DNA of 64,000 nucleotides. Source: Candidatus Hadarchaeales archaeon (GTDB lineage: Archaea; Hadarchaeota; Hadarchaeia; Hadarchaeales; WYZ-LMO6). The notes under the pieces were generated by a model. That model made no database searches. It was given only the letters and a program-made list of their open reading frames with translations, and was not told where the DNA came from. The translations under genes were made by a program, and so were the position numbers. The stretch covers positions 53,637 through 117,636 of the forward strand of contig JAWCKR010000001.1 of the NCBI GenBank assembly GCA_038851755.1, read 5' to 3'. Shown here piece after piece: positions 1-25,618 of the stretch (position 1 is the stretch's first letter; every line of letters starts with the position of its first letter).

Positions 1-1210
1 TGTCGCGGATCGCGAACCTGGCAAGCTGGGGTATGTCCGAGACCTTCTCGATCACGAGGGGCTTCGTGGGCCTCACCCTGATGGTGGCCATGTCCCCCCT
101 CTTTATGAACTGGGGATGCTCCTCCACCACCTGGCCCGTCTTCGGGTCCATCTTGTTGATGATTTCCGTGATCTGGCAGGCCACCTGAGCGGTGTGAACG
201 TGGAACACGGGCGTGTAGCCCGCCGCTATGGCCGTCGGGTGCTGCAGGACCGCTATCCTGGCCACGAACTCGCTAGCCACCGTTGGCGGGGAGCTCGGCA
301 GGCCCGCCACGTCACCCCTCCTGATCTCGTTCTTGGCTATACCCCTGATGTTGAACCCGATGTTGTCCCCTGGCTCCGCCTTGGGGATGGACTCGTGGTG
401 CATCTCTATGGACTTCACCTCGCCCGTCTTCCCGGAGGGCTCGAACACCAGGGTGTCACCCACCTTGAGCACGCCCGTCTCCACCCTACCCACGGGCACC
501 GTTCCCACACCCGTGATGGAGTACACGTCCTGGATGGGAATCCTGAGGGGCTTGTCTATGGGCTTGGGAGGTATCACGAAGGCGTCCAAGGCCTGCAGCA
601 TGGTGGGGCCGCTGTACCACTTCATTTTCTCGCTCGGCTTCGTCACGTTCTCTCCGTGGAAAGCCGCCACCGGTACGAAGGGGAACTTGTCCGCGTTCCT
701 GAAGCCAACCACCTTCAGCATCTCCATAATCTCCGACCTCAGCTTCTCGTAGACTTCCTTCTTGTAGTCCACGAGGTCCATCTTGTTGATGGCCACCGCC
801 AGCTGCCCCACCCCCAGCGTGAAGGCGAGGGCGGCGTGCTCCCTCGTCTGGGGCATGATCCCGTCGTCCGCAGCCACCACCAGGATGCCTGCGTCAGCCT
901 GGCTGGCCCCTGTAATCATGTTTTTGACGAAGTCCCTGTGACCGGGAGCATCTATCAGGGTGAAGTAGTACTTGTCGGTCTCGAACTTCCTGTGGGCGAG
1001 GTCTATCGTGAGCCCGCGCTCCCTCTCCTCCTTCAGATCGTCCATCACCCAGGCGAACTTGAAGGTCTTGCCCTTGTCCCCCAGGGCCTCGAACTTCTTT
1101 ATCTCCTCCTCCTTCACCGCTCCCTTCTCGAAGAGCAACCTCCCCAGGAGGGTGGACTTGCCATGGTCCACGTGCCCCATCGTCACCAGGTTCAGGTGTG
1201 GCTTGGCCAT
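1..1210 (-). CDS. tuf: Translation elongation factor EF-1alpha (aEF1A), 3' end truncated by window edge
   Basis: Reverse strand translates [26 protein letters not shown]...[20 protein letters not shown]...NKMD (GTPase G1-G4 motifs). ATG at 1210..1208. Reading frame runs off position 1. Confidence 0.95.
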
Positions 1211-1241
1211 CTTCTCGACCTTAGTCTCGATTGTCCTCCCG

Positions 1242-1251
1242 GATTTAAATC
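1242..1251. promoter_or_regulatory. Perfect 10-bp palindromic A/T box GATTTAAATC between rps7 stop and tuf start; candidate internal promoter (TATA-like) for tuf
   Basis: Sequence ccGGATTTAAATCt. Centre lies ~36 nt upstream of the tuf ATG, with a GGGAGG run between box and start. Only A/T-rich element in the S7-tuf spacer. Confidence 0.3.
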
Positions 1252-1261
1252 TTTTTGCGTT

Positions 1262-1861: not shown

Positions 1862-1871
1862 CTCCAAGCCC

Positions 1872-2300: not shown

Positions 2301-2321
2301 CTCATCCCTTCCGGCGCTCCC

Positions 2322-2746
2322 TCATTTTATTATTATGTTGTGGATTCCGCAGTTCCTCTGGGCAAGCTTCTTCGCCCTCTTGATCCTTGCCCCGCCCTTC
2401 CCTATCGCCAGCCCCTTGTCCTGCTGCCTCACCTCCAGCACCGCCACCTTCTTCCCGTCCTCCTCCATGAAGGTCAGGGAACCTATCTGGGCGGGGGAGA
2501 AGAGCAGCCTGAGGAACTCCTCCGGATCCTCCGAGTATCCCACCACCTCCACCTCCTTTCCGAGGAGCCTCCTGAGCTTCTTTATATGGCACCCGTTCTT
2601 CCCCACGCAGAGCCCCACCAGCTCCTTCTGCACCAGAAACACCAGCCTGTTCTCCCCCTCGCTGAGGATGCAATCCCTGGCCTTCACCCCGCTGACCATC
2701 TCCAGGAGGGAGATGTACCTCATCTCTTCCTCGCTGAGGGTGATGT

Positions 2747-2750
<4 letters not shown>
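2322..2750 (-). CDS. nusA: Transcription termination/antitermination factor NusA homologue (archaeal KH-domain form)
   Basis: 142 aa with two KH-like GXXG segments (GKNGCHIKKL, GKGGARIKRA). Conserved position between rpl30e and rps12. ATGA overlap with rpl30e. Confidence 0.88.
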
Positions 2751-6834
<4,084 letters not shown>

Positions 6835-6846
6835 TCCCTCACCTCC

Positions 6847-9800
6847 TCAGGCCTTGTCCCGCAGCCTTATGCGGGCATCCAGGCAGAGGGACCTGAGCTC
6901 ATCCAGCATCAGCTTGAAGGCATACGGCATCTCCACGGTGTAGATCTCCGACTCCTCCTCGCAGAAAGGACAGTAGGTCCTGCCCCTCCTCCTGTCATAA
7001 ACGGCGAAGTGCCCGCACCTACCGCAGACCAAAGCGTCGAACTTGTCCGAGCTCTCCAAAAGCCTGTCCCTGAGCAGCCTGGCCGCGCCGTACCCTATCA
7101 GGCAGTCCCTCTCCATCTCCCCGAACCTGAGCCCCCCTTCCCTCGCCTTTCCCTCCGTGGGCTGGTGGGTGAGGACCTGAACAGGCCCCCTGGACCTCAC
7201 GTGCACCTTGTCCGCCGCCATGTGGTGAAGCTTCTGGTAGTAGCAAACCCCTATGAAGATCTCTGCAGGAATCATCTCCCCGGTCATCCCGTTGTACATC
7301 ACCTCCTTCCCCACGGGGTGGAAGCCCCTCTCCTTCAGCATCTCCCTGATCCTCTCCTCCGGCTCTCCCTCGAAGGTGGTGCCATCCACCTCCTTCCCCA
7401 CCAGCGCGCCAGCCTTCCCCGCCACCATCTCCAGGAGCTGTCCTATCGACATCCTGGAGGGTATGGCATGGGGGTTGATGATGAGGTCGGGGACGATGCC
7501 GCTCTCCGTGAAGGGCATATCCGCTCCGTCCATCACCAATCCCACCACTCCCTTTTGTCCATGCCTGGAGGCGAACTTGTCCCCCACTTCGGGTATCCTG
7601 AGACTCCTCACTCTAACCCTTGCCGCCCTGTTCCCTTCAGCCGTCATCACCAGATAAACCATGTCAGCTATTCCCTCTTCCCCCGGCTTTACCCTGATGG
7701 AACTCTCCCTCCTTCCCACCTCCATCTTTACCCCAAACTCGTCCGTTTCCTCGAAGAATCGTGGGGGACTGGTCCTACCTATCACCACATCCTCCACCAC
7801 GAGCCTGGACTCCGGCTCCACTATTCCCTCCTCCCCGAGGCTGGCATAATGGGAGATGTCCGAGTACCCCCTGACTTCCTCGCTGGGTATCTCGAACTTG
7901 TCCCTCTGCCCACCGGAGTACCTTCCCTCCTCGGCCTCGTAGATGGTGAAGGAGGTGCTCCTTCCCAGTCCGCGGTCTATCGAATCCCTGTTGACTATGA
8001 GGGCATCCTCCATGTTGTAACCGCCGTAACATGCGATGGCCACCACCAGGTTCTGACCGCAGGGCCTCTCCCTGAATCCCAGGAGGTCCATCACCTTGGT
8101 CCCCACCAAGGGGCGCTGCGGATAGTGGAGGAAGTAGGCGTGAGTATCGGTTCTGGTGTGCATGCTCACGGAGAAAACCCCCAGGGCCTGCTTCGCCATG
8201 TTCGCCCCGTAGGTGTTGCGGGGTGACTGGTTGTGCTCGGCGTAGGGAATGAGGGAAGCGCTGCCACCCAGCATGGCTAGGGGGTGAAGCTCCAGATGGG
8301 TGTGCTCGGGGGTGAGCTCCTCGGGGTTGACCGCCACGTAGGTGTTCTCCTCCTCGTCCGCATCCAGGTACTCGACCACCCCGCTCCTGACGAGCTCGCT
8401 CCAGCTCATCCTGCCGCTCCTGAGCATCTCCAGGTGCTGATCGGTGACCAGGGGTTTGCCGTCCTTCACCACTATCAGGGGTCTCCGCACCCTTCCCGGA
8501 TCGCACCAGACCGTTACCTCGTTGGTGTCCTTCTTGAACCTGACGTTAACCTGGTCGCTGAGCTCCCCCTTCCTCCTTCTCTCCCTTATCTCGTTGGCCA
8601 GCTTCTCCCCGTCCTCCACCGTGCCTATCACCCTCCCGTTGAGGAAGACCGCCACCCTGCCGCTGCGCTCACCTCCCTTCCTGATGGGAAAGACCCCTAT
8701 CCCGTAGAGGGTCTTCTCCACCCTCCCCTCATCATCTCCCGTGGAGATTTCGGCGGTGAGGGCGAGGTTCTTCACCAGACCGCAATTGGGTCCCTCGGGA
8801 GTTTCCGACGGACATATCTTCCCCCAGTGGGTGGGGTGGAGGTCCCTAGCCTCGAAGTGCGGCTGGCTCCTGCTCAGCGGGGAGATGATCCTGCGAAGGT
8901 GCGAGAGGGTGGAGATGTAGTTGGTCCTGTCCAGGAGCTGGCTCACCCCCGTCCTCCCGCCGGGCCAGTTCCCGGTCGCGAGGGTGTGCCTGATCTGCTC
9001 GGTGAGGAGGTCCGCCCTGGCCGCCGTCCTGAGGTTGAGCTCCCTGCCCCTGGAGTGGGAGCGCTCCAGCTGATACTTGATGTCCTTTATGAGGTTGACG
9101 AGGGCCACCCTGAAGATGTTCTCCAGCATCTCCCCGCTCAGCTTCAGGCGCTTGTTCCCGTAGTGGTCCTTGTCGTCCACCCCCCTCCTGCCCAGGGAGA
9201 GCTCTATCACCCTCTCCACCATGCTGCCCAGGAAGTAGGCCTTGGCCAGCCTGTCCTCGGGGGAGGTGCCTATGTGGGGAAGGAGGTACTTGTCCAGGAC
9301 CTCCTGCGCCCTCTGGAGCCTGTAGCTCTTCACCTGCCCTATGGCCACCCTCTTCCCTATCACGTCCAGCGCGTCCTTCTCCGTCTTTATCTCCACGCCC
9401 TCCGTCAGGTTCTCGAAGAGCTCCCTCACGATCTCCGGGTCATCGGAGACCGCCTCCACGATGTCCTTGTCCTTGACCAGGCCCAGGGCCCTCATCACCA
9501 CGACCAGCGGCAGCTGCCCCGGGACAGAGGGGAAGGAAACCCGTATCAAGCCGTCCTTCTTGCGCTCCACCACCACCAGCGCGCGGAAGCCCCGGCGGCT
9601 GGAGAAAACCTTGGCCACCTCCACCCCCAGGCGCTCGTCCCTCTCCACCAGGATGGAGTTCGTGGCCAGATCATCCTGGATGACGATGACCCTCTCCGAC
9701 CCGTTGATGATGAAGTATCCCCCCGGATCCATGGGATCCTCCCCCATGGCCACCAGCTCCTCCTCGCTCTTTCCGCGGAGGACACATATTTTGGACTTCA

Positions 9801-10164
9801 GCATCACGGGAATTTCCCCTATCATCACCGTCTGGGGGGGAGACTTCTGTCCCTTGGAGACGATGCTCATCTCCAGGTGAAGAGGAGCCAGGTAGCTCAT
9901 GTTGCGCATCCTGGCGATGTGAGGGGTAACCGTGGGGGGCCTCGAATAGGACCCGTCCGCCTCCCGGAACCAGGGTTCTCCCACCGTGATCTTGCCGAAC
10001 TCTACATGGGTCCCCTCTATGTCCAGGTCTATCCCACCCACGTCGTCTATCACCCGCTGGAGGCCATTATCTATGAAATCGTTGTAAGAGTCCAGGTGCT
10101 GCCTGACCAGGCCCCTTTCCTTCAGGAAAGCCTCCACCAGAACCCATCGGTCCCGGAGCACCAA
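6847..10164 (-). CDS. rpoB: DNA-directed RNA polymerase subunit B, unsplit (single 1105-aa polypeptide)
   Basis: N-term ...GLVRQHLDSYNDFIDNGLQ, ...GQKGVVGLV..., C-terminal Zn ribbon CGRCGHFAVYDRRRGRTYCPFCEE. Not split into B'/B''. TTG start with GGAGGG 8 nt upstream. Confidence 0.97.
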   Translation of the reverse strand: MVLRDRWVLVEAFLKERGLVRQHLDSYNDFIDNGLQRVIDDVGGIDLDIEGTHVEFGKITVGEPWFREADGSYSRPPTVTPHIARMRNMSYLAPLHLEMSIVSKGQKSPPQTVMIGEIPVMLKSKICVLRGKSEEELVAMGEDPMDPGGYFIINGSERVIVIQDDLATNSILVERDERLGVEVAKVFSSRRGFRALVVVERKKDGLIRVSFPSVPGQLPLVVVMRALGLVKDKDIVEAVSDDPEIVRELFENLTEGVEIKTEKDALDVIGKRVAIGQVKSYRLQRAQEVLDKYLLPHIGTSPEDRLAKAYFLGSMVERVIELSLGRRGVDDKDHYGNKRLKLSGEMLENIFRVALVNLIKDIKYQLERSHSRGRELNLRTAARADLLTEQIRHTLATGNWPGGRTGVSQLLDRTNYISTLSHLRRIISPLSRSQPHFEARDLHPTHWGKICPSETPEGPNCGLVKNLALTAEISTGDDEGRVEKTLYGIGVFPIRKGGERSGRVAVFLNGRVIGTVEDGEKLANEIRERRRKGELSDQVNVRFKKDTNEVTVWCDPGRVRRPLIVVKDGKPLVTDQHLEMLRSGRMSWSELVRSGVVEYLDADEEENTYVAVNPEELTPEHTHLELHPLAMLGGSASLIPYAEHNQSPRNTYGANMAKQALGVFSVSMHTRTDTHAYFLHYPQRPLVGTKVMDLLGFRERPCGQNLVVAIACYGGYNMEDALIVNRDSIDRGLGRSTSFTIYEAEEGRYSGGQRDKFEIPSEEVRGYSDISHYASLGEEGIVEPESRLVVEDVVIGRTSPPRFFEETDEFGVKMEVGRRESSIRVKPGEEGIADMVYLVMTAEGNRAARVRVRSLRIPEVGDKFASRHGQKGVVGLVMDGADMPFTESGIVPDLIINPHAIPSRMSIGQLLEMVAGKAGALVGKEVDGTTFEGEPEERIREMLKERGFHPVGKEVMYNGMTGEMIPAEIFIGVCYYQKLHHMAADKVHVRSRGPVQVLTHQPTEGKAREGGLRFGEMERDCLIGYGAARLLRDRLLESSDKFDALVCGRCGHFAVYDRRRGRTYCPFCEEESEIYTVEMPYAFKLMLDELRSLCLDARIRLRDKA

Positions 10165-10168
10165 CCCC

Positions 10169-10423
10169 CTATCCCTCCACCACGTATCTGTACGCCACCG
10201 TTCTCCCTGCCGTGAAGCTCTCCCTCTTGATCTCCACGATATCCCCGGGCTTCGCCCCTATGACCCTCGCCACCGGGTCTGAACTCTTCAGCAGGGGAAG
10301 CTGATGGGGCCTCACCCTGTACCTCTTCAGGACCTCTTCCCCCTCCTCCTTTGACAGTACTCTATGCTCAGGCACCAGCGCGTGCCCCCGGGGATCGAAC
10401 TCCTCACTCATCCTCCCGCCCAT
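10169..10423 (-). CDS. rpoH: DNA-directed RNA polymerase subunit H (Rpb5 homologue)
   Basis: 84 aa; [51 protein letters not shown] matches the RpoH family. ATG 10423..10421 lies 1 nt from the tRNA-Lys 3' end. Confidence 0.9.
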
Positions 10424-10424
10424 A

Positions 10425-10499
10425 CGGGCCTGGTGGGATTCGAACCCACGACTCCCGGCTTAAAAGGCCGGTGCGCTAGCCAGACTGCGCTACAGGCCC
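10425..10499 (-). tRNA. tRNA-Lys (anticodon UUU)
   Basis: Reverse strand GGGCCTGTAGCGCAGTCTGGCTAGCGCACCGGCCTTTTAAGCCGGGAGTCGTGGGTTCGAATCCCACCAGGCCCG. 7-bp acceptor stem, D-arm GCGC/GCGC, anticodon stem CCGGC/GCCGG with loop CTTTTAA, T-arm GTGGG-TTCGAAT-CCCAC, discriminator G, no encoded CCA; 75 nt. Confidence 0.9.
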
Positions 10500-10524
10500 A
10501 ACTAACGGAGGGGTCGAAACTACT

Positions 10525-10534
10525 TATATTTATC
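10525..10534 (-). promoter_or_regulatory. TATA box of tRNA-Lys promoter (probably also drives the rpo operon)
   Basis: Reverse strand reads aaagagATAAATATAAgtagtttcgacccctccgttagtt then the tRNA 5' G. The A/T box is centred ~30 nt upstream of the mature tRNA 5' end. Confidence 0.45.
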
Positions 10535-10600
10535 TCTTTCGGATAAGGGCCTGACGTGCCGATTTCCCGGACTTTGACTCCTCCGGGGACCCCCAAGAGC

Positions 10601-12082
10601 TCACTCGGCTTCGTATACCCTCCCCTTCTCCACCTCTCCCCTCTCGAACCTCTCCCTCATCTCGTCCGCTATCTTCTGCGCCAGGGGGGTGGGGTATTTC
10701 CCCGTGAGGCAGCCGAGACAGAGTTCCTCCCTCTTCATCCCCGTTGCCCTCACGAAGCCCTCCAGGGACTGATAGTGAACGGAGTCCGCCCCTATCAGGC
10801 GGGCTATCTCCTCCTCCCGGTGGGTGGAGCCTATCAGCTCCCCGAAGGTGGCCATATCTATGCCATAAAAGCAGGGGGAAAGGATGCGCGGAAAGGTGAA
10901 GTACATGTGGACCTCCGCGGCCCCGGCCATCCTGAGCTTCCTTATCACCCTCCTGGAGGTGTCACCCCTCACTATCGAGTCCTCCACCACCGCTATCCTC
11001 TTTCCCTTGAGGCTCTCCGTGACGTTGATCTTCTTGGAAATGATCTTCTCCCTCTCCTCGGAACTCGAGATGAAGGCCCGGTCCACCACATACCTGTGCC
11101 TCCTCACTCCCCTTTCCCAGGGTATGCCCGTGACCTCGTGCATTCCATAAGCCGCATCGTCACCCGTGGAGGGTATGGAGACTATCGCATCCACCCTTCT
11201 CTCGAGCTCCGGGTCTTCTCTGGCCAGGTTCCTCCCGAACTCCTCCCTCACCTTATAAACTGGCCTGCCATCGTGGAGCACGGAGTCGGGCCTGGCGAAG
11301 TAGGCGAACTCGAAGCTGCAGAAGGCCCTCCTCTCCCCCTCCACTATCTTCTCCCTCCTGGCCCCCTGCCCGGACCATATCAGCAGCTCCCCAGGCTGGA
11401 CCTCCGCCTCGTACCTGAACTCGTTTATGTCCAACCCCACGCTCTCGGAAGAAACAGCGAAGGTCTGGTTGTCCGGGCTGCAGCCGTAGCACAGTGGCTT
11501 TATCCCCAGCGGGTCCCGGAAGGCGAAGAGCTCCCCCCTCTGTGTGATGCCCACCACGGAGAAGGCCCCTTCCACTTCCCTCATACAGCCTTCCACCGCC
11601 GAAACCAAGTCGGAGTTCTTCAACCCCTTAAGCAGCTTCCTGGAGAGAAGCTCTATGTCGGAGGAGGAGCAGGAGGGACCCCTCGTCTTCCCCCTCAGCT
11701 CCGCCCTGAGTTCCTTCACATTCACCAGATTTCCATTGAAGGCCAAAGCCACCCTCTCCTCCCCCCCCATCACAAAGGGCTGTATGTCCCTGAGGAGCCA
11801 GTATCTGGTGCTCCTTCCGGAGGTGGCGTACCTCACGTGCCCCATCCCCACGTGGCTCTTGAAAGCCCGGAAAAGCCTTCTCACCACGGGATGCCTCACG
11901 GGTGGGAGCAGGCCGAGGGAGCGGTGGGTGAAGAAGTCCCCCTCCCTGAACTCCGCGAACCCGTGAGAGTGATGTCCCCGATGGTTCTGGGAGATTAAAC
12001 CCCAGTACACGTAGGGGAAGACCCCCTTGCCCTCAAAATCGAAAGCACCGAAGACCCCGCAGGACTCTCCAGAAACTTCCAC
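10601..12082 (-). CDS. purF: Amidophosphoribosyltransferase (glutamine PRPP amidotransferase)
   Basis: Short propeptide MEVSGES then CGVFG N-terminal nucleophile Cys. C-terminal PRTase domain (VVEDSIVRGDTS) and Fe-S Cys ligands (CLGCLTGKYP). Confidence 0.95.
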   Translation of the reverse strand: MEVSGESCGVFGAFDFEGKGVFPYVYWGLISQNHRGHHSHGFAEFREGDFFTHRSLGLLPPVRHPVVRRLFRAFKSHVGMGHVRYATSGRSTRYWLLRDIQPFVMGGEERVALAFNGNLVNVKELRAELRGKTRGPSCSSSDIELLSRKLLKGLKNSDLVSAVEGCMREVEGAFSVVGITQRGELFAFRDPLGIKPLCYGCSPDNQTFAVSSESVGLDINEFRYEAEVQPGELLIWSGQGARREKIVEGERRAFCSFEFAYFARPDSVLHDGRPVYKVREEFGRNLAREDPELERRVDAIVSIPSTGDDAAYGMHEVTGIPWERGVRRHRYVVDRAFISSSEEREKIISKKINVTESLKGKRIAVVEDSIVRGDTSRRVIRKLRMAGAAEVHMYFTFPRILSPCFYGIDMATFGELIGSTHREEEIARLIGADSVHYQSLEGFVRATGMKREELCLGCLTGKYPTPLAQKIADEMRERFERGEVEKGRVYEAE

Positions 12083-12113
12083 TCCCCCACCAGAGGGGGT
12101 TGGAGGTCCTCCC

Positions 12114-12956
12114 TTAAAATTTCTTTCCCGTAACTCTCTCGTAGCACTCGACGTACTTCTTGGAGGTCTGGAGAACGACCTCGGGAGGGAGGCGGGGGGC
12201 TGGGGGCTTCTTGTCCCATCCCACGCTGATCAGGTAATCCCTCACGTACTGCTTGTCGAAGCTCGGGGGGTCCTTCCCCTCCTGGTACCCCTCCAAAGGC
12301 CAGAAGCGGGAGGAGTCCGGGGTTAGAACCTCATCTATCAGGAGAAGCTCCCCACGGCTGGAGCCGAACTCGAACTTGGTGTCGGCTATCAGAACTCCCC
12401 TCTTCTCGGCCAAGGAAAAGGCCCTCTCGTAAAGGGAAAGGGAGAGCTCCCTGATCTCCTCCGCCACTTTCCTTCCCAGTCTCTCCACCACCTCCTCCCA
12501 CCGCACCTCCCTGTCGTGCCCGCTCTCCTCCTTGGTGGTGGGGGTGAGAAGGGGCTCCGGCAGCCTGGAGGCCTTCTTGAGGCCTGGAGGCAAATGAACC
12601 CCGCACACGCTCTTGCCAGCCGCATAGCTCTCCCAGGCTGACCCGTACAGGAAGCCCCTGACGATGAACTCGAAGGGGAAAGGGGAGGCCTTCCTCACCA
12701 GCATGCTCCTTCCGTCCACCGCCTCCACGAAGTGGCTCGGAACATCACTGAAGAGGTTGAACCAGAAAACGGAGAGCCTGTTCAGGGCCTCACCCTTGTG
12801 GGGAATGCCGTTCGGGAGCACCACATCGAAGGCCGAAATCCTGTCGGTGGAAACCACGAGGAGGTTTTCCCCCAGCTCGTAAATGTCCCTGACCTTCCCC
12901 CTCTTGTAGAGTTTGAGGGGAAGCTCCGATTGTAAGAGGGGCTCCTCTACCTCCAT
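12114..12956 (-). CDS. purC: Phosphoribosylaminoimidazole-succinocarboxamide synthase (SAICAR synthetase)
   Basis: 280 aa; ...LYKRGKVRDIYE...ADTKFEFG... typical PurC. 10-nt overlap with purE. Confidence 0.93.
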   Translation of the reverse strand: MEVEEPLLQSELPLKLYKRGKVRDIYELGENLLVVSTDRISAFDVVLPNGIPHKGEALNRLSVFWFNLFSDVPSHFVEAVDGRSMLVRKASPFPFEFIVRGFLYGSAWESYAAGKSVCGVHLPPGLKKASRLPEPLLTPTTKEESGHDREVRWEEVVERLGRKVAEEIRELSLSLYERAFSLAEKRGVLIADTKFEFGSSRGELLLIDEVLTPDSSRFWPLEGYQEGKDPPSFDKQYVRDYLISVGWDKKPPAPRLPPEVVLQTSKKYVECYERVTGKKF

Positions 12957-13426
12957 CCTCTCACAGCAGATTCGTCCGCGGAGAGGACTTCTTCCCTCCT
13001 CCTCCTCTGCCAGGAAGAGAGCTTCTCCGCCAGTCCTCTGTCCAACAGGGAGAGGATTTTGGCGGCTGCCAGGGCCGCCCCCTCCGGGTCCATCACCACC
13101 AGGGGGGCCACACCCTTGGGCATGCGCAGGGAGGAGAAGATGTCAAGGGGAAAGCTCTCCACCTTCACGGGGCAGGCTATCACGGGATGTCTCACCTGTG
13201 CGTCCACCATCCCGGAGAGAGCGTTGGACCTTCCCGCGAACGTGAGGTAGACCAGCTCCTCCCCGCTGCGCTCGTATTCCTCCAGCATCCGCAGGAGCCT
13301 ATCGGGGGTCTTGTGGGCGGAGGCCACCCGCTCCTCGAACCTCACCCCAAGCTCCCTCAGGAGGGCCCTGGCGGGCTCCGCGAACTCCACATCCGCCCTG
13401 GACCCGTAGAGGACTACGACCTTCAC
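12947..13426 (-). CDS. purE: N5-carboxyaminoimidazole ribonucleotide mutase / AIR carboxylase catalytic subunit
   Basis: 159 aa; MKVVVLYGSRADVEFAEPA...ASAHKTPDRL...FAGRSNALSGMV typical PurE fold. Confidence 0.9.
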   Translation of the reverse strand: MKVVVLYGSRADVEFAEPARALLRELGVRFEERVASAHKTPDRLLRMLEEYERSGEELVYLTFAGRSNALSGMVDAQVRHPVIACPVKVESFPLDIFSSLRMPKGVAPLVVMDPEGAALAAAKILSLLDRGLAEKLSSWQRRRREEVLSADESAVRGWR

Positions 13427-13463
13427 TGCACCCGGGAGAGGGTCGGTGGGGAAGTTTTTAATC

Positions 13464-13859
13464 CTACCGCCCTCGTCCAGCTTTCGACTCCCGGCGGCCC
13501 ATCGCTTCTTCCACGGCCTTCTTGATCATCCTCTTGGGTGGATAGGGGTAGTGCCTCCCCCCGTAGAAGTAAACCCTGCACCCGAGCTTGCACTCCCTTC
13601 GAACGAAATGACCAGCGCTCTCGGCAAGCTCCTCGCAAGAAGGGCACCTCCCCTTCGTGACCTCCTCTTGAACATCCCTACCATCCACCAGCACGGTGGG
13701 CGAACCCAAAAACCCGTGCTCCTTGGCCTTTTCCTCCGTGTCTATCAGTATTTCTTCCACCTCCGCTTTTACCCCCAGTTCTCTCAGGACCTCTCTGACC
13801 ACCTCCTTGGTCTTCAGGCACCATGGGCAGTCCAATATGTACAGAATCTGAATCTTCAC
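13464..13859 (-). CDS. Thioredoxin/glutaredoxin-fold protein (CPWC active site) with a C-terminal Cys-rich (CPSC...C..C) extension, embedded in the pur operon
   Basis: KVKIQILYILDCPWCLKTKEVVREVL...GSPTVLVDG is a Trx fold; tail ...GRCPSCEELAESAGHFVRRECKLGC. The track ORF begins at GTG 13928 inside purQ with no RBS. GTG at 13859 follows the purQ stop, preceded by GAGGGAAAGAAG; preferred start. Confidence 0.6.
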   Translation of the reverse strand: MKIQILYILDCPWCLKTKEVVREVLRELGVKAEVEEILIDTEEKAKEHGFLGSPTVLVDGRDVQEEVTKGRCPSCEELAESAGHFVRRECKLGCRVYFYGGRHYPYPPKRMIKKAVEEAMGRRESKAGRGR

Positions 13860-13873
13860 CTTCTTTCCCTCGA

Positions 13874-14665
13874 TTATCTCCTTAAATTCTCCACTATGGA
13901 AGAGAAGATCTTTCTCCCGTCGCCCCACTCGGGAGGAGAATCACCCCCCGTCCAGTCGGGAAGCTGCCAGCCGAAGACCGCCCTCTCCGGATGGGGCATC
14001 AGGCCCATGATCCTGCCCGTGGAGTCGCATATGCCTGCAATATCGAAGAAGGACCCGTTGGGGTTCACCGGGTACCTCCCGCCCGCTGGCCTCCCCCTCC
14101 GGTCGCAGTACCTGAAGACCAGCTGATCCTTCTCACGGAGCTTCCTCAGGTACTCCTTCTCCCTGCCCGCCGGGAAAAGGAACTTCCCCTCCGCATGCGC
14201 CACGGGCATCCTCACCACCTCCCCCTTCCTCATCCCCCTCGTGAAGAGGCACTTCCCGCCGTTCTCCACCCTCAGATATGTCCACCTGCACTCGAACTTC
14301 GCCGAGTTGTTGAGGGCAAGGGCCGCCTGCACCTCCCCCCACTTGAAGCCTGGCAGGAGACCCGCCTCCACCAGCACCTGAAAGCCGTTGCAGATCCCCA
14401 GGATGGCCCCTCCTCCCTCCACGAACTCCCTAAGGACGGGGAGCATCCTCCCGGCAAGCTCCTTGCCCATGATCGCACCTGCCCTCACCCTGTCCCCGAA
14501 GGAGAAGCCACCGGGAATCACCAGCACGTCGTATCCCCTCAGTCCCTCCTCCAGCATCCTCCTGAAGTGGACCAGCTCCACCTCCGCACCAGCCTCCTCC
14601 AGAGCAACCTTCGTCTCGCCGTCGCAGTTGGTCCCGCCCGCCCTCACGACACAGGCCCTCACCAC
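13874..14665 (-). CDS. purQ: Phosphoribosylformylglycinamidine synthase subunit PurQ (glutaminase)
   Basis: VVRACVVRAGGTNCDGE...ILGICNGFQVLVEAGLLPG...MPHPER is a class-I glutamine amidotransferase triad. GTG start overlaps the purL stop (gcGTGGTGAgg). The track ORF (to 14986) is a Gly-rich over-extension running into purL. Confidence 0.9.
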   Translation of the reverse strand: MVRACVVRAGGTNCDGETKVALEEAGAEVELVHFRRMLEEGLRGYDVLVIPGGFSFGDRVRAGAIMGKELAGRMLPVLREFVEGGGAILGICNGFQVLVEAGLLPGFKWGEVQAALALNNSAKFECRWTYLRVENGGKCLFTRGMRKGEVVRMPVAHAEGKFLFPAGREKEYLRKLREKDQLVFRYCDRRGRPAGGRYPVNPNGSFFDIAGICDSTGRIMGLMPHPERAVFGWQLPDWTGGDSPPEWGDGRKIFSSIVENLRR

Positions 14666-17010
14666 GCCGGATTCCTCCAGGCCTTCCTCAGCTCCTCCGC
14701 CCCCACCGTCCACCCACCTCCCTTCCCCCTGAACCTCAGTACCCCTTCCCCCACCACGTGCCCTATCCTCGCAGCTCTCCCCCCCGTCATCTCCCTGAAC
14801 TCCTCCTCCCTTTCCTCCCTCACCTCCAGCAGGAACCTGCTGTTGGACTCCGAGAAGAGGAGGAAGTCCTCTCTGAGCCTGCCCTCGGAGGGGACCAGCG
14901 AAAGGTCCACCTCCGCCCCCACTTCCCCCCCCAGCACCATTTCGGCCAGGGCTACCCCCAGCCCACCCTCGGAGAGGTCGTGACACGCCCTCACCAGTTC
15001 TCTCCCCACGGCCTCCTCCACCACCTCCAGGTTCCTTCTGGCCTCCCCCAGTCTCACCCTGGGCACGCTCCTTCCGAGGTAACCGAACAGGGCATAGTAC
15101 TCAGAACCACCCAGCTCCGGGAAGGTGGTTCCCACTAGGTAGAGGGGATCCCCCTCCCTCTTCAGCTCCACGGAAACGGCTCTTCTCACCTCCGGTATCA
15201 CACCCACTGCCGTGATCAGGAGGGTGGGGGTCACAGGACCCAGCGGTGACTCGTTGTACAGGCTGTCCTTTCCCGAGATGAAGGGGGTACCCAGCCCCTT
15301 AGCGAAGCGGTAGCAGGCCTCGCAGGCCCTGACGAGCGAACCGAGCTGCTCCTCCTTCTCGGGGCTCCCCCACACGAAGTTGTCCAGCAGGGCTATCCTC
15401 CTGCCCCCCACGGCCACGTTGTTCCTCACCGCCTCCTCCAGGCTCGAAGCGGCCATCCAGTAAGGATCTATCTTCCCGTACCTGGGCTTCAGCCCGCAGG
15501 AGAGCACCACCCCCTTCTCCGAACCCCTGAGGGGTTTCAGGACCACCCCATCGTTGGGTCCCCCATGCTCCCCCTGCAGGGGCTTCAGAGCGGTGGCCCC
15601 CTGGACCTCGTGGTCGTAGGTCCTGATCACTTCCTCCCTGCTGCAGAGGTTGGGGGAGGAGAGGAGCCTGAGAAGGGCCTTCCTGGGCTCCGGAGGAGAA
15701 AAGCTCGGCTCCTCCAGGGGAGGTGCCCTCCACCTGGCCCTCCTCTCCACCAGCGGAGGAGAGAAGAGGAAGTCCAGATCAAGCTCGGCCACCCTGTGCC
15801 CGCGGTAAAAAACCCTGAGCGGGCCCTTCGTGAACCTTCCGATGGGGGTGGCCTCCACTTCCTCTTCCTCGAAGATCCTCACCACCTCCTCCACGTTCTC
15901 GGGAGGGACGCTCAGGGCCATCCTCTCCTGGGACTCCGAGACCCAGATCTCCCAGGGTTTCATGCCTGGGTACTTCAGCGGAACCTTCTCCAACCAAACC
16001 TCCACCCCGCAGCCGGCCTCCCTCGCCATCTCCCCGCTGGCGCAGGAAATCCCTCCTCCGCCCAGGTCGGTTACGGAGCTGGCCAGGCCCCTCTCCGCTA
16101 TCTCCAGGATCCCCCTCTTGAGTTTTTCCTCTTCTATGGGGTCGGGGATCTGAACGGCCGGCCTGGAGACTTCCTCCGATTCCTCGGAGAGCTCCAGGGA
16201 AGCAAAGGTGACCCCGTGGATGCCGTCCCTGCCCGTCCTTCCTCCCGCCAGGACCAGCAGGTCCCCAGGCCTCGTCCTCTTCACGTAGCTCCTGAGGGGG
16301 AGAAGCCCCACGCACCCGCAGTAGACCACGGGATTGCCCACATAGCTCTCGTCGAAGTATATGGCCCCCGCCACGGTGGGGATGCCCATGTTGTTGCCGT
16401 AAGCCCCTATCCCTGCCACCACCCCCCGGTAGATGTAACGAGGATGCTTGATTCCGGCGGGAAGCCGCTCGTGGGGGAAGCTGAGGGGCCCGAAGCCAAG
16501 CACGTCCAGGCAGGCTATGGGCTTCGCCCACACGCCCAGGATGTCCCTGATCACGCCCCCCACCCCGGTGGCCGCCCCACCGAAGGGCTCGATGGCCGAG
16601 GGATGATTGTGGGTCTCCACCTTAACGGCGAGGGCGTACCCGTCCTCGAACTCCACGATGCCCGCGTTATCCTTGAAGGTGGAGATGCACCAGGGGAGAG
16701 AAAGCTCTTCAGTGACACGGCTTATGAAATCCCTGAAGAGCCTGACCCTTTTCCCCCCCATCCTCACCACCCCCTTGAAGGTCTTGTGGAAGCAGTGCTC
16801 CGACCAAGTCTGGGCGATCCCCTGCAGCTCCACATCGGTGGGGTCCCTGCCTCTCCTGGAGAAGTACCCGCGGCACTCCTCCATCTCCCTCAGGCTCATG
16901 GCCAGGCCCATCTCCCTGCTTATCCTGGAGAGGTCCTCCCTGCCCGCCTCCCGCAACCCTATCTCATAAACCTCGAAGGGGAGCGGGAGCCTCCTGTAAA
17001 GCTCGCTCAA
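14659..17010 (-). CDS. purL: Phosphoribosylformylglycinamidine synthase subunit PurL (FGAM synthase II)
   Basis: 783 aa; ...VETHNHPSAIEPFGGAATGVGGVIRD... and a duplicated AIRS-like domain; typical small-type PurL. Confidence 0.95.
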   Translation of the reverse strand: MSELYRRLPLPFEVYEIGLREAGREDLSRISREMGLAMSLREMEECRGYFSRRGRDPTDVELQGIAQTWSEHCFHKTFKGVVRMGGKRVRLFRDFISRVTEELSLPWCISTFKDNAGIVEFEDGYALAVKVETHNHPSAIEPFGGAATGVGGVIRDILGVWAKPIACLDVLGFGPLSFPHERLPAGIKHPRYIYRGVVAGIGAYGNNMGIPTVAGAIYFDESYVGNPVVYCGCVGLLPLRSYVKRTRPGDLLVLAGGRTGRDGIHGVTFASLELSEESEEVSRPAVQIPDPIEEEKLKRGILEIAERGLASSVTDLGGGGISCASGEMAREAGCGVEVWLEKVPLKYPGMKPWEIWVSESQERMALSVPPENVEEVVRIFEEEEVEATPIGRFTKGPLRVFYRGHRVAELDLDFLFSPPLVERRARWRAPPLEEPSFSPPEPRKALLRLLSSPNLCSREEVIRTYDHEVQGATALKPLQGEHGGPNDGVVLKPLRGSEKGVVLSCGLKPRYGKIDPYWMAASSLEEAVRNNVAVGGRRIALLDNFVWGSPEKEEQLGSLVRACEACYRFAKGLGTPFISGKDSLYNESPLGPVTPTLLITAVGVIPEVRRAVSVELKREGDPLYLVGTTFPELGGSEYYALFGYLGRSVPRVRLGEARRNLEVVEEAVGRELVRACHDLSEGGLGVALAEMVLGGEVGAEVDLSLVPSEGRLREDFLLFSESNSRFLLEVREEREEEFREMTGGRAARIGHVVGEGVLRFRGKGGGWTVGAEELRKAWRNPAW

Positions 17011-17014
17011 CCCC

Positions 17015-17269
17015 TCACCTTCCCAGCTTCCTGACCTCGAAGGAGTAGTCGTCCTTCACCGGGTTGGAGAGGAGCCTCCTGCACATCTCCTCCGTGAGCT
17101 TCCTGGCCTCCTGGAGGCTGGAGGCGGTGAACTCTATCTCGTATACCTTCACCACCCCCACGCGGTGGACCCTGTACCTGAGGTCCTGCAGAGCCTCCTT
17201 GGTGCTCTCCCCCTCCGGGTCCAGGTAGCCTGGCTTCAACCTCACCTCCACCCTGCTCAGATATTTCAT
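17015..17269 (-). CDS. purS: Phosphoribosylformylglycinamidine synthase subunit PurS
   Basis: MKYLSRVEVRLKPGYLDPEGESTKEALQDLRYRVHRVGVVKVYEIEF; ~84 aa PurS fold. ATG at 17269 forms an ATGA overlap with the purM stop. The track ORF is over-extended to 17344. Confidence 0.85.
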   Translation of the reverse strand: MKYLSRVEVRLKPGYLDPEGESTKEALQDLRYRVHRVGVVKVYEIEFTASSLQEARKLTEEMCRRLLSNPVKDDYSFEVRKLGR

Positions 17270-18411
17270 GCCCTCCACCCGTACTCGAACTTTCCGGTTC
17301 CGCTCTTTATGATCACCCGGTTCCCCCCCTTTCCCCTTTCGCACCTCCCTATCACCCCTGCCTCCAGCTTAAATCCCTCCGAAACCCTCACCACCTCCTC
17401 CACGTCCTCCGGGTCCACCACCAGCTCAAAACCCACCCCCATGTTGAACACCTCGTACATCTCCCTCCACTCCACCCTCCCCTCCCTCTGCACGAGGAGG
17501 AAGATGGGATCGGGCTCGGGCAACCGGTCCTTCACATAAACGAGGTTCTTCCCCACCCTCAAACTCTTGGTGAGGCCTCCTCCCGTGTTGTGCACCATGA
17601 GCTTCACCCCTTCCCCCACCCTCTTGAGGATCCTCAGAACTACGGGAGCGAAGACGCGGGTGGGTGAGAGGATGGCCTCCCCCACCGTCATGCCCAGCTC
17701 GTCCAGATAATCGTCGAACCTGAACCTGCCCCGGTAACCCCCCCTGTCCACGAGCTCGGGATACCTCCGGGTGTACTCCCCCCTCATGAGCACGTGCCTG
17801 GCGAGGGTGATGCCGTTGCACATCATGCCGCTGTTTTCCCTCTTCTCGTACCTCGTCCTCCCTCCGCTCCTGAGGCCCACGATCAAATCTCCCGCTTTCA
17901 CCCTCTCCCCCTTCCTCACCTCCGACAACCTCACTCTGGCCGCCAGGACACCGGCGAGGTCCAGCGTCCTCACCTGATCGGGAAGATCCGCCGTCTCCCC
18001 GCCCAGGAAAGGTATCTCCAGCCCCAGGGCCTCCAGCTCCTTGAGGGCCCTCCGGAAGCCGGAAACCAGGTGGAAGAGGAGCTCGCGCTTGGGGAGGAGG
18101 CGGGGGTTGAGGGTGAGGTAGTCCGCGAAGGCGAGGGGGTGGAAGGGACCCACGCAGACCACGTCGTCCACGTTCATGGCCAGGACATCCTGGGCCAGCC
18201 CCTCGAACCAGGACGGGTCCCCGGTCTCCCTCCAGTGGAGGTAGCTCTGCTGGGGCTTGCTCCCCGCCCCATCAGCATGCAGGATCAGCCCCGTCTCCCT
18301 TCCCTCCCTCCCCACCGGGCAGAAGGGTACCAAATCCGCGTCCAGGAGGGAGAGGAAGAGTTCCGTTCCCTCCTTCTTCGCGTCCACTCCTAGGGAACGG
18401 TAGAGGCTCAA
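17266..18411 (-). CDS. purM: Phosphoribosylformylglycinamidine cyclo-ligase (AIR synthetase)
   Basis: 381 aa AIRS/AIRS_C two-domain protein (...GGETADLPD...; ...NTGGGLTKSL...). Position in pur operon. ATGA overlap with the folD stop. Confidence 0.88.
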   Translation of the reverse strand: MSLYRSLGVDAKKEGTELFLSLLDADLVPFCPVGREGRETGLILHADGAGSKPQQSYLHWRETGDPSWFEGLAQDVLAMNVDDVVCVGPFHPLAFADYLTLNPRLLPKRELLFHLVSGFRRALKELEALGLEIPFLGGETADLPDQVRTLDLAGVLAARVRLSEVRKGERVKAGDLIVGLRSGGRTRYEKRENSGMMCNGITLARHVLMRGEYTRRYPELVDRGGYRGRFRFDDYLDELGMTVGEAILSPTRVFAPVVLRILKRVGEGVKLMVHNTGGGLTKSLRVGKNLVYVKDRLPEPDPIFLLVQREGRVEWREMYEVFNMGVGFELVVDPEDVEEVVRVSEGFKLEAGVIGRCERGKGGNRVIIKSGTGKFEYGWRA

Positions 18412-19277
18412 CCCTTTCCCCCCAGCGCCTCCGAGGCCAGGAGGGTGTTGTGGAGGAGCATCACGCGCGTCATGGGGCCCACCCCGCCAGGCACGGGCGC
18501 GAGGTGGGAGGCCTTTCGGCTCACCCCCTCAGGGTCCGCATCCCCCATCAGCTTCCCGCCCACGTAGTTCATGCCCACATCCACCACCACGGCACCCTCC
18601 CCCACCATTTCCTCGGTGAGGATGAAGGAAGGCCTCCTCCCCACCGCCGAGACCAGCAGCTCGGCTTCCCTGGTCCTCTCCTCCAGTTTCTTCGTCTTGG
18701 AGTGGCAGAGGAGGACGCTGGCATCCCTGTCCAAAAGGAGCTTGGCCAGGGGCTTCCCCACCAGGTCACTCCTGTTGATGATGACCGCCAGCTTCCCCCT
18801 CACCTCTATCCTGTACTTGTCCAGCAGCCTCAGGATGCCCTTGGGCGTGCACGGGAGGAGGCTTCTCTCTGGATCGTACTGTCCCTTCCACAGCTTCCCC
18901 ACGTTGTAGGGGTGGAGGCCGTCCACATCCTTTTCTGGGGAGATCTCCTCCACCAGACGCTTCGGGTCAAGGTGGGGAGGAACGGGGAGCTGCACGAAGA
19001 TTCCGTGAACTCTCCTGTCCTCGTTCAGACGGTGGATGAGCCCCTCCAGCTCCCCCTCCTCCACGGAAGAGGGAAAAGCGTGCAGCTCGAAGGAGATTCC
19101 CACCTCCGCGCAGTCCCTCCTCTTCCCCTCCACATAGATCTTGGAGGCCGGGTTGTCCCCCACCAGAAGGGTGGCAAGGGTGGGGGTTATCCCCCTCCTC
19201 TTCAGGCCCGCGACCCTCGCGCGCAGTTCCACCTTAATTTCTTCGGCCAGGGCCTTCCCGTCCATGAGCACGACCAT
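18408..19277 (-). CDS. folD: Bifunctional 5,10-methylene-tetrahydrofolate dehydrogenase / methenyl-THF cyclohydrolase
   Basis: MVVLMDGKALAEEIKVELRARVAGLKRRGITPTLATLLVGDNPASKIYV...VPGGVGPMTRVMLL is a canonical FolD. Confidence 0.9.
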   Translation of the reverse strand: MVVLMDGKALAEEIKVELRARVAGLKRRGITPTLATLLVGDNPASKIYVEGKRRDCAEVGISFELHAFPSSVEEGELEGLIHRLNEDRRVHGIFVQLPVPPHLDPKRLVEEISPEKDVDGLHPYNVGKLWKGQYDPERSLLPCTPKGILRLLDKYRIEVRGKLAVIINRSDLVGKPLAKLLLDRDASVLLCHSKTKKLEERTREAELLVSAVGRRPSFILTEEMVGEGAVVVDVGMNYVGGKLMGDADPEGVSRKASHLAPVPGGVGPMTRVMLLHNTLLASEALGGKG

Positions 19278-19285
19278 GCTCTCCC

Positions 19286-20734
19286 TCAGAAGGAGGGAGT
19301 CGCCTTCTTCCCCAGCCTCTCCGCGTACCTGGAGAGCACCGGGGCCACCTCCCTCTCAAGAAAGCGATCGCACCTCTCCACGGCATCCCCCACATGCCTG
19401 GAGGGGTCGAGGACCTCCTCCAGCTCCTCAGGCGTCAGGAGACGACCCACCACGGGATCCTCCCTCAGAAGGGAAGGCAGGGGATTCTCCCTTCCTTCCC
19501 TGACCCTCTCCCAAGCCTGGAAGGAAAGCTTCCTCAGCCTCTCGTGCATCTCCTGCCTGTTCTCCCCCTTCCTCACCAGAAGCATCAGGAGGGGCTCCAG
19601 GGCGGAGAAGGGGGAGAAGAGCTTGAGGTTGCGGGTGATCATGGCCTGGTTCACCGTCATCCCCTCCACCACCTTCTGATATACCATAAGAACTTCTTCC
19701 ACCGCCAGGAAGCTCTCCGCTATGATCACCCTTCGGTTGGCGGAATCATCCAGGGTGCGCTCGAGAAGGGTGTGGGAGGCGTTCTCCCAGGCCACCCTGG
19801 GCAGGGAGGCCACGTACCTGGCCAGCGAGCACATGCGCTCCGAGAGGACGGGATTGCGCTTGAAGGGCATGGCGGAGGAGCCCACCTGCGCCTCCCCCAG
19901 GGGCTCGGAGAGCTCCCCCCACACGGGTGAGTGCAGGTGCCTGAGGTCGGCCCCGAACTTGTGGGCGCTCTGGGCTATCCCTGCCAGAACGGAGAGGACC
20001 ATGAAGTCCAGCTTCCTGGGGGCGGTCTGCCCCGAGATGGTGAAGTAGGAAAGGCCCAGCTTCTCCATCACCTTGGCCTCAAGCTCCGCAGGTTCGGCCT
20101 TTCCCCCAAGCAACCTCTTGAAGCTGGCGGAGGTTCCCACCGCCCCCTTCACTCCCTTCCCCTTCAGAAACTCTGAGAGCAGAAGCTCCACCGCCCTCAG
20201 GTCGAGGAGGAGGTCCTGGGCGTAGAAAGCCAGCCTGTACCCCACCGTGGTGGGCTCGGCCGGCTGGAGGTGGGTCCAGCCCATGCAGACGGTGGCCCTG
20301 TGCTCCTTTATCCTGAGGGAGAGGGAATGGAGGCAGTTGACCAGCCTGGTGAGGAGGAGGTCGAGGGCCCTCCTCATCCTCAGCACGTCCGCGTTGTCCT
20401 CTATGTCCATCGAGGTGGCCCCGAGGTGGAGCTTCCCTCCCCCTCTGGGACACTGCTGGGAGAAGACCTTGAGCTCCGCCATGAGGTCGTGCCTTATTTC
20501 CTTCTCCACCCTCTGGGAGAGCTCCAGGTCCACATGTTCCTTCCCCGCCTTCTCCCTGATCTCCCTCAGCTCCTCCTCGGAGATCAGACCGTACTCCGCC
20601 TGGGCCTCGGCCAGTGCTTTCCACACCTTCCTCCAGAGGGCCCTGTACTCCAGCTCTGAGAAGAGGGAGCGCATCTCCTCGCTCCCGTATCTCCAAGTGA
20701 AGGGAGACAGAAAGGTACGGTAGTCGAAGCCCAT
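19286..20734 (-). CDS. purB: Adenylosuccinate lyase
   Basis: 482 aa; ...GATSMDIEDNAD..., ...HLQPAEPTTVGYRLA..., signature ...GSSAMPFKRNP... of the fumarase/ASL family. Confidence 0.93.
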   Translation of the reverse strand: MGFDYRTFLSPFTWRYGSEEMRSLFSELEYRALWRKVWKALAEAQAEYGLISEEELREIREKAGKEHVDLELSQRVEKEIRHDLMAELKVFSQQCPRGGGKLHLGATSMDIEDNADVLRMRRALDLLLTRLVNCLHSLSLRIKEHRATVCMGWTHLQPAEPTTVGYRLAFYAQDLLLDLRAVELLLSEFLKGKGVKGAVGTSASFKRLLGGKAEPAELEAKVMEKLGLSYFTISGQTAPRKLDFMVLSVLAGIAQSAHKFGADLRHLHSPVWGELSEPLGEAQVGSSAMPFKRNPVLSERMCSLARYVASLPRVAWENASHTLLERTLDDSANRRVIIAESFLAVEEVLMVYQKVVEGMTVNQAMITRNLKLFSPFSALEPLLMLLVRKGENRQEMHERLRKLSFQAWERVREGRENPLPSLLREDPVVGRLLTPEELEEVLDPSRHVGDAVERCDRFLEREVAPVLSRYAERLGKKATPSF

Positions 20735-20756
20735 TTCTTCCTTCCTCTCCTTGAAA

Positions 20757-20766: not shown

Positions 20767-20789
20767 TTTGGGGAGGAGAGAGGGGGAGG

Positions 20790-25553: not shown

Positions 25554-25618
25554 TTTCCTCCTGAAGCCTCCCTCCGGCACTCTTCCACCTTCTATCAAGG
25601 AAAGGGGGGAGTTTAACC

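Follow-up and report, generated by a model that had tools for sequence, protein, structure and literature searches.

Purine genes, tRNA-Lys(UUU) and the RNA polymerase/str genes in one head-to-tail array of a Hadarchaeales archaeon: probably ordinary transcription units nested in a mosaic

In the thrU-tyrU-glyT-thrT-tufB operon of Escherichia coli, the classic example of its kind, tRNA genes are transcribed together with a gene of the translation machinery; an example of a bacterial purine operon is purEKBCSQLFMNHD of Bacillus subtilis. Bacterial pur operons are taken here as one term of comparison (PMC4223553, PMC3347571). Among archaea, the gene order from rpoH to EF-1alpha is the standard one of the str/L30e cluster, in whose published consensus the presence of fusA (EF-2) between S7 and EF-1alpha is optional (PMC10833476), and the mixed operons of ribosomal-protein and RNA polymerase genes of Methanococcus maripaludis have internal starts and mapped terminators (PMC10450193). 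The present work concerns an array in which a purine (pur) cluster, a tRNA-Lys(UUU) gene and the rpo/str genes follow one another on the minus strand, at positions 1-20734 of a 64,000-nucleotide stretch (the window) of contig JAWCKR010000001.1, from a Candidatus Hadarchaeales archaeon. This array is probably not a purpose-built 20-kb operon but a mosaic, in which transcription units of ordinary kind are nested and have stood head to tail since the ancestor of one Hadarchaeales subclade. The candidate RNA polymerase operon led by the tRNA gene is more notable and more testable than the pur-rpo array as a whole.

The 20-feature array from purB to tuf that had been noticed in a preliminary description of the window is real, with nineteen genes and one tRNA-Lys(UUU) confirmed by family models. 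Gene identities were assigned with NCBIfam models and the tRNA with ARAGORN and Rfam, and start codons were set by conservation in relatives. In minus-strand order, the first half comprises purB, folD, a purM-like gene, purS, purL, purQ, a DUF2703/thioredoxin-like gene, purE, purC and purF, and the second half tRNA-Lys(UUU), rpoH, an unsplit rpoB, rpoA′, rpoA″, L30e, nusA, S12, S7 and EF-1alpha. The spacers, re-measured with the conserved starts, are in array order +8, −4, −4, +4, −4, +14, +37, −10 and +31 nucleotides (nt) from purB to purF, and +100, +13, +4, +12, +1, −14, −4, +21, +4 and +51 nt from purF to the tRNA and onward. The spacer range of −14 to +51 nt given earlier is correct for 18 of the 19 junctions but not for that between purF and the tRNA, which measures 100 nt and is the most important of them. 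A second long same-strand string occupies positions 44356-60795, with RtcB, an RNA methyltransferase, the ribosomal-protein operon (about 46.6-52.8 kb), his genes and apgM. Co-directional strings of unrelated operons, e.g., ribosomal-protein and then his genes, are normal in this genome, and their occurrence elsewhere in the window was counted against the reading of the array as a single fused unit.

Relatives were collected by three routes: a PurF-based scan with one genome per GTDB species, look-ups based on RpoH, and a scan of JGI metagenomes with an RpoH profile. The relatives' loci used in the comparisons are labeled L003, L060, etc. The RpoH of the window falls in a protein cluster labeled 'Candidatus Hadarchaeales archaeon' at NCBI, and its PurF is identical to a PurF protein in GCA_038846705.1, after which the next relatives are Hadarchaeota metagenome-assembled genomes (MAGs), including WYZ-LMO6. 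The purF-tRNA-Lys-rpoH junction was directly observed in 14 independent contigs; those of sufficient length carry the array in full, from purH to tuf. The RpoB proteins of the junction-bearing contigs are at least 89% identical to that of the window, and the contigs represent about five lineages of species to genus rank, at 80–90% nucleotide identity, of one Hadarchaeales subclade. The lineages differ in gene content, with purC deleted in L060-L062 and L075 and the DUF2703 gene absent in others. No other sampled locus has the junction, including 50-odd Bathyarchaeia purF loci and the Hadarchaeota loci L006, L066-L070, L079-L090 and L155/L156. One candidate, Bathyarchaeota L057, was discarded as a different arrangement: about 8 kb, occupied by a tRNA-Ser and other genes, separate its purC-purF pair from rpoB. 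The synteny search for purF-tRNA-rpoH that had been proposed, run on the sampled genomes, places the adjacency in one Hadarchaeales subclade only, of which it is a synapomorphy. The arrangement had also been put forward as one not known from any described archaeon; in agreement with this, no prior description of pur-rpo adjacency was found in the literature, the coverage of which was incomplete.

The link between the tRNA and rpoH is older and tighter than that between pur and rpo. The tRNA-Lys(UUU) gene (10425-10499, minus strand; detected by ARAGORN, and by Rfam RF00005 with 73 bits) stands immediately upstream of rpoH in all ten loci with RpoB at least 85% identical to that of the window and in all 17 with 60–85% identity, i.e., in 27 of 27 Hadarchaeota-like loci, among them the named Hadesarchaea B3_Hades and DG-33-1. 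The genes upstream of the tRNA vary by lineage: a PhoU/TrkA gene or an MgtC gene, each on the opposite strand, a tRNA-Asp with a DUF763 gene, or the pur cluster. The tRNA-rpoH spacer of the window is the G-rich, 13-nt sequence UAUGGGCGGGAGG (10412-10424, minus strand), without TATA box, T-run or encoded CCA. Its length is 13–14 nt in the subclade of the window, 18 nt in L066, 20–25 nt in L079, L082 and L086, 30 nt in DG-33-1 and 38 nt in L069 and L070. Across Hadarchaeota these 13–38-nt spacers are always G-rich and contain neither a T-run nor an AT-rich box. Since a spacer of this size, with neither TATA box nor terminator, is kept in the 27 loci, the predicted tRNA promoter most likely drives rpoH-rpoB-rpoA′-rpoA″-L30e-nusA too.

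Concerning other archaea, the survey of tRNA-Lys-rpoH outside Hadarchaeota was biased, being limited to the 80 top-scoring matches of a Hadarchaeota-weighted profile. It gave a looser arrangement in Methanocella (L100, L121 and L157), with a spacer of 66–84 nt, and a tRNA-Asp/tRNA-Lys pair ahead of rpoH in 'Bathyarchaeota ex4484_205' (L096); there was no tRNA-Lys-rpoH link in the sampled loci of Acidianus, Culexmicrobium, two Thermoproteota MAGs and one Bathyarchaeia MAG. A second RpoH profile search contained, among the 120 matches listed, only Methanocella and Acidianus as genera with cultured members. A tRNA-Asp(GUC) gene is often found just ahead of tRNA-Lys(UUU) in Hadarchaeota-like loci too (the L066-L070, L079-L090 and L155-L157 group was sampled). 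No prior description of tRNA-rpoH co-transcription was found in the literature, again with incomplete coverage. The tRNA-Lys-rpoH pair, conserved throughout the phylum, is a candidate for a tRNA-mRNA co-transcription unit that would supply the core transcription machinery of archaea. Metatranscriptomes would make this locus a place to examine tRNA-processing-dependent mRNA 5′ ends in uncultured thermophiles, and also the way in which internal promoters set the ratio of RNA polymerase to ribosomal proteins to EF-1alpha.

The putative promoter of the tRNA is CCGAAAGAGATAAATATAAG (10523-10542, minus strand), a B recognition element (BRE)/TATA sequence with the TATA centre about 28 nt before the 5′ end of the tRNA. 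All 14 contigs of the subclade carry it in near-invariant form, while the remainder of the purF-tRNA spacer is free to vary. This variable part (10543-10600, minus strand), which is the actual junction of the two blocks, is not conserved in sequence, and the whole spacer, of 100 nt in the window, measures 55–87 nt in relatives. A T5 run directly after the purF stop occurs only in the L060/L062/L075 lineage, there being none at the junction in four of the five lineages; read-through from pur into tRNA/rpo thus appears physically plausible in those four. Folding of the purF-tRNA-rpoH region gave z = −1.45, i.e., no significant extra structure and no terminator hairpin. An Rfam scan of positions 1-21000 returned the tRNA only, with no riboswitch and no leader RNA, and a scan for bacterial sigma-70 promoters and hairpin terminators gave counts at the level of shuffled sequences, which is uninformative for an archaeon.

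The earlier statement that no oligo-T tract separates the blocks stands, as no spacer contains a run of T≥5 on the transcribed strand. The window has a G+C content of about 62%, with T amounting to about 15% of the sense strand. In 20.7 kb two runs of T≥5 were seen (a T6 within purL and a T5 within the DUF2703 gene), against about 1.6 expected from composition. The lack of oligo-T was therefore rejected as a sign of selection. Both runs were considered, and discarded, as internal terminators: the T6 of purL is not present in any of four relatives, and the T5 of the DUF2703 gene recurs in L060 only, inside a recombination patch of 90–95% identity. Runs of T5 to T8 do follow some other genes of the window, e.g., at 36036-36040 and 53973-53980; the latter, a T8 run, comes after an unannotated open reading frame (ORF) of 376 amino acids.

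Promoter-like sequences were sought as AT-rich boxes, defined as 8-mers with at least seven of eight A/T and the centre 26–40 nt upstream of the start of a feature. Such boxes precede eight of the 20 starts, namely those of purB, purS, the DUF2703 gene, purE, purF, the tRNA, S12 and tuf. The expected number was 1.04, and none of 20,000 circular shifts reached eight; segments with at least seven of eight A/T are rare, with 34 in 20.8 kb. Lead genes elsewhere in the window display the same geometry, the box centre being about 27–35 nt from the start codon, and because of these distances the sequence implies that leaders would be short or absent in this genome. The preliminary description recognized promoters only at purB/purH, the tRNA and, possibly, tuf. 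This count proved too low, as there are more boxes, seven of them internal to the array with about one expected. Conservation across lineages was observed for the internal boxes of the tRNA, purF, purE, S12 (confounded by coding) and tuf.

The 55-nt spacer between purB and the divergent purH contains the shared quasi-palindromic box CCAAAG-TTAAAAAC-CTTTCAAGG (20749-20771, assigned to neither strand). Its element AAAG-TTAAAAAC-CTTT is centred 29 nt from the ATG of purB and 27 nt from that of purH, and consists of a single AT-rich core with inverted BRE-like purine tracts; it is kept in L003, L005 and L060. It is a good candidate for a bidirectional promoter with a shared TATA, which would give two near-leaderless mRNAs. 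A comparable shared T/A tract is found elsewhere in the window, between cofD and a HAD hydrolase gene (39922-39941). Within the pur cluster, the putative purF promoter is the AT-rich box GGGAAAGAAATTTTAAGGG at the purC stop (12111-12129, minus strand), with its centre about 38 nt upstream of the purF start. The box (GAAATTTTAA) is kept in all five lineages, including L060, which has no purC; the codons that form it are rare (AAA is 7% of Lys and TTT 10% of Phe), and so is its stop, TAA being the rarer one with 2 of 15 stops. In the L060-L062, L075 lineage with deleted purC, the AT-rich box at the former purC stop and the purF leader are still in place. The box before purE, TAGGATTAAAAACTTCC (13450-13466, minus strand), has its centre about 32 nt ahead of the purE start, and a related one (CTAAAAG) is kept in L003, L005 and L063, with or without the DUF2703 gene. 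The box GAGAATTTAAGGAG, at the purQ stop (13878-13891, minus strand), is centred about 26 nt upstream of the GTG of the DUF2703 gene.

In the rpo/str block, the putative S12 promoter is the AT-rich box CACAACATAATAATAAAATGA (2322-2342, minus strand), whose centre is about 30 nt ahead of the S12 ATG. It is formed by the last codons of nusA, ATA ATA ATA AAA (IIIK-stop), a codon choice with P ~0.006 given the codon usage. The promoter-like BRE/TATA box of tuf, CGCAAAAAGATTTAAATCC (1241-1259, minus strand), has its centre about 39 nt upstream of the tuf ATG. This box (GCAAAAAGATTTAAAT) is conserved in five lineages and can still be recognized in the distant L066, there preceded by T5 runs.

The mosaic of nested units is proposed to work as follows, with promoter activity, co-transcription, RNA processing and read-through all deduced from sequence and its conservation. 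The partial purine cluster from purB to purF would start at the AT-rich box held in common with divergent purH, with probable internal starts before the DUF2703 gene, purE and purF. The own BRE/TATA promoter of tRNA-Lys(UUU) would transcribe the tRNA and the rpoH-to-nusA genes together, and RNase P plus RNase Z would cut out the CCA-less tRNA, giving an mRNA with a short leader. Further promoters before S12 and tuf would raise the output of the more abundant translation components. The pur cluster is one of several alternative neighbours upstream of the tRNA-rpo block, acquired once, in one subclade. As an oligo-T run after purF is missing from most lineages, some read-through from pur into tRNA/rpo is likely; it would be a tolerated by-product of neutral rearrangement rather than a selected coupling. 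Such a selected coupling is made less likely by the lack of constraint on the junction, by the T5 run of the fifth lineage and by the conservation of the promoter boxes.

A more far-reaching proposal, which we regard as unlikely, has two parts. The essential core RNA polymerase operon of Hadarchaeota, having no promoter of its own, would be a 3′ extension of pre-tRNA-Lys(UUU), with the 5′ end of the mRNA created by RNase Z; in addition, in the hot-spring subclade, terminator-less read-through from pur would act as a purine-responsive input to the synthesis of RNA polymerase and translation factors.

It seems quite unlikely that purB-to-tuf is one functional super-operon, in which the purB promoter would read through the tRNA into rpo/str as a selected coupling. 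Such an organization would agree with the tight spacing and the lack of T5 or longer runs in every spacer, with a junction retained by about five lineages whose nucleotide identity goes as low as about 80%, with the four lineages of five that have no T-run at the junction, and with the guaB gene that adjoins S7 in L071 and L072. However, the scarcity of T-runs equals what base composition predicts, the purine pathway is incomplete, the junction sequence is unconstrained, with a T5 run there in one lineage, and the independent promoter boxes are conserved, above all the near-invariant one of the tRNA. Sister Hadarchaeota have unrelated or opposite-strand genes upstream. From the physiological viewpoint, a surplus of RNA polymerase subunits is detrimental to assembly and growth in M. 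maripaludis (PMC10450193), and an induction of RNA polymerase under purine scarcity would make little sense. The idea advanced at first, of one fused unit coupling purine supply to the expression machinery, does not agree with the near-invariant tRNA promoter, the other conserved boxes and the freely varying junction; moreover, distant Hadarchaeota keep tRNA-Lys-rpoH with unrelated, often opposite-strand genes upstream.

Another alternative, which we hold to be very unlikely, is that rpoH is transcribed separately, from a promoter hidden in the tRNA-Lys gene, where either the T-loop TTCGAAT or the anticodon loop CTTTTAA would act as a weak TATA. In its favour, the distance from the T-loop to the rpoH ATG downstream is about 27 nt, the anticodon loop is rich in T and A, and mRNAs of this genome seem as a rule to have a short leader or none; but neither element has the AAAG-type BRE found at other boxes, the distances of 13–38 nt between tRNA and rpoH in Hadarchaeota mean that the geometry from T-loop to ATG is not kept, and no lineage has a terminator after the tRNA. 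Finally, the pur-rpo junction could be an assembly or binning chimera, as the source is an assembly from an uncultured organism and the sole exact purF match found sits on short contigs, but this is refuted to the point of a negligible probability by the 14 independent contigs, which come from differing samples, assemblers and archives (NCBI, JGI, ENA, Logan) and have lineage-specific sequence differences.

Some points weigh against the array being a mosaic of nested units, which is the reading that we favour. All the promoters considered here are sequence predictions, and the S12 and purS boxes lie within coding sequence, so that their conservation is confounded. The survival of the junction to about 80% nucleotide identity fits weak selection as well as inertia. 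There is no canonical terminator between any units of the array in the window, L063 has no T5 run at all across its 20-kb array, and in view of this lack of terminators a long read-through transcript may exist. Purine genes are near the cluster elsewhere too: guaB (24123-25835) is 3.4 kb from purB in the window, and guaB (IMP dehydrogenase) is directly after S7, in the place of tuf, in the Thermoproteota MAGs L071 and L072 (~19361-20258), an independent case of a purine-nucleotide gene adjoining the str cluster. The pur-rpo array is a lineage-specific juxtaposition of known, ordinary units, which by itself says little on regulation.

The genes of the RNA polymerase/str block, from rpoH to EF-1alpha, are all on one strand (minus), and every one of them scored above the NCBIfam equivalog cutoff: rpoH (10169-10411, 80 amino acids; NF007129, 106 bits), the unsplit rpoB (6847-10164; NF006335, 1679 bits), rpoA′ (4222-6834; NF006336, 1411 bits), rpoA″ (3033-4220; TIGR02389, 502 bits), rpl30e for L30e (2747-3046; NF002172, 113 bits), an archaeal nusA-like gene (2322-2750; TIGR01952, 145 bits), rps12 for S12 (1872-2300; NF003254, 254 bits), rps7 for S7 (1262-1867; NF003106, 274 bits) and the 5′ part of tuf for EF-1alpha (1-1210; NF008969, 682 bits), which is cut by the window edge and whose ATG at 1210 was set by alignment with relatives. 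No fusA is present between S7 and tuf, where the 51-nt spacer contains no ORF; this is an allowed variant. The conserved start of rpoH is its second ATG, at 10411. The ATG at 10423, abutting the tRNA, was rejected as the start, being out of frame or absent in relatives. The rpoH frame is open into or up to the tRNA gene (10408-10596, 10411-10423), and public gene calls of rpoH begin too early, with 84 amino acids, or with 93 that begin with translated tRNA sequence, which is an annotation artefact. In L096 (5812-6237), the rpoH ORF can be read as 141 amino acids, with a Lys/Arg/Ser-rich N-terminal extension of 60 residues beginning 22 nt past tRNA-Lys, and public gene calls contain both this form and one of 89 amino acids. 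Attention is called to this annotation trap, in which gene callers run rpoH into the tRNA gene.

Concerning the purine cluster, its genes are also on the minus strand: purB (19286-20734; TIGR00928, 375 bits), folD (18408-19277), the purM-like gene for aminoimidazole ribonucleotide (AIR) synthase (17266-18411), purS (17015-17270; TIGR00302, 76 bits), purL (14659-17010; TIGR01736, 693 bits), purQ (13874-14662; TIGR01737, 254 bits), the DUF2703/DF-family thioredoxin-like gene (13464-13859, 131 amino acids; NF049942, 86 bits, and Pfam PF10865 plus PF13192), purE (12947-13426), purC (12114-12956; NF010568, 362 bits) and purF (10601-12082). Four of them scored under the model cutoffs. The FolD models gave about 320 bits (E ~1e-95) with cutoffs of 333–559 bits, its homologues having the Pfam domains THF_DHG_CYH and THF_DHG_CYH_C; the purM-like product gave 157 bits with TIGR00878 (cutoff 236 bits), its homologues having AIRS/AIRS_C; PurE gave 128 bits over its full length with TIGR01162 (cutoff 149.6 bits); and PurF, also full length, was just under the 350-bit cutoff of TIGR01134, with 340 bits. 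Divergent from purB, on the plus strand, is a bacterial-type bifunctional purH (20790-22322; NF002049, 728 bits). The cluster plus purH accounts for steps 1, 4, 5, 6 (purE only), 7, 8, 9 and 10 of the pathway. It had been called a complete de novo purine operon, which is not the case, as purD, purN/purT and purK are neither in the array nor among the other ORFs scanned in the 64-kb window.

The DUF2703/DF-family gene between purQ and purE is an insertion in the pur cluster, present in some lineages only. The patch formed by this gene and its flanks (about 13190-13990) is 90–95% identical to L060 and the remaining array about 79%, a difference suggestive of recent recombination or transfer. Another observation concerns the N-terminus of PurF (12062-12082), with seven residues, VEVSGES, ahead of the catalytic Cys; by analogy, they would imply a cleaved propeptide, and the PurF of B. 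subtilis likewise has a cleaved propeptide before the catalytic Cys.

Two further clusters were observed in the window. One, at 26125-31713, is a compact cluster for archaeal membrane lipids, with digeranylgeranylglyceryl phosphate (DGGGP) synthase, the tetraether synthase Tes, geranylgeranyl reductase, geranylgeranylglyceryl phosphate (GGGP) synthase and glycerol-1-phosphate (G1P) dehydrogenase. The other, at 36047-42175, is an F420 biosynthesis cluster with cofC, a cofH-like radical SAM gene, cofD and the HAD hydrolase gene, as well as two divergently arranged paralogues of cofE (F420 ligase).

When the locus is compared with known systems, it resembles bacterial pur operons in that most de novo purine genes run in one direction with overlapping stops and starts. 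It differs from them by the missing purD, purN/purT and purK, by the inclusion of folD and the DUF2703 thioredoxin-like gene, by the divergent purH and by the promoter-like boxes inside the cluster. With the operons of M. maripaludis (PMC10450193) it has in common that genes of unequal required abundance form long co-directional strings, in which internal signals would tune the levels; the window differs in having promoter-like boxes only, without T-runs, and in that the upstream partner is a biosynthetic cluster. Relative to the archaeal str/L30e cluster (PMC10833476), the genes from rpoH to EF-1alpha have the same order and orientation and are likewise tightly spaced or overlapping, while the differences are the lack of fusA between S7 and tuf, the unsplit rpoB, the tRNA-Lys(UUU) fused at the 5′ end and, in the subclade, the purine cluster directly upstream. 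The thrU-tufB operon of E. coli differs from the locus in several respects, since here the promoter is of the archaeal BRE/TATA kind, there is a single tRNA, RNA polymerase subunits are encoded downstream, and the co-transcription is one that we infer. The two are alike in having a tRNA directly upstream of a gene of the expression machinery, on the same strand and with no terminator between, and they would also be alike in operation, as the tRNA promoter would serve the mRNA and processing would release the tRNA.

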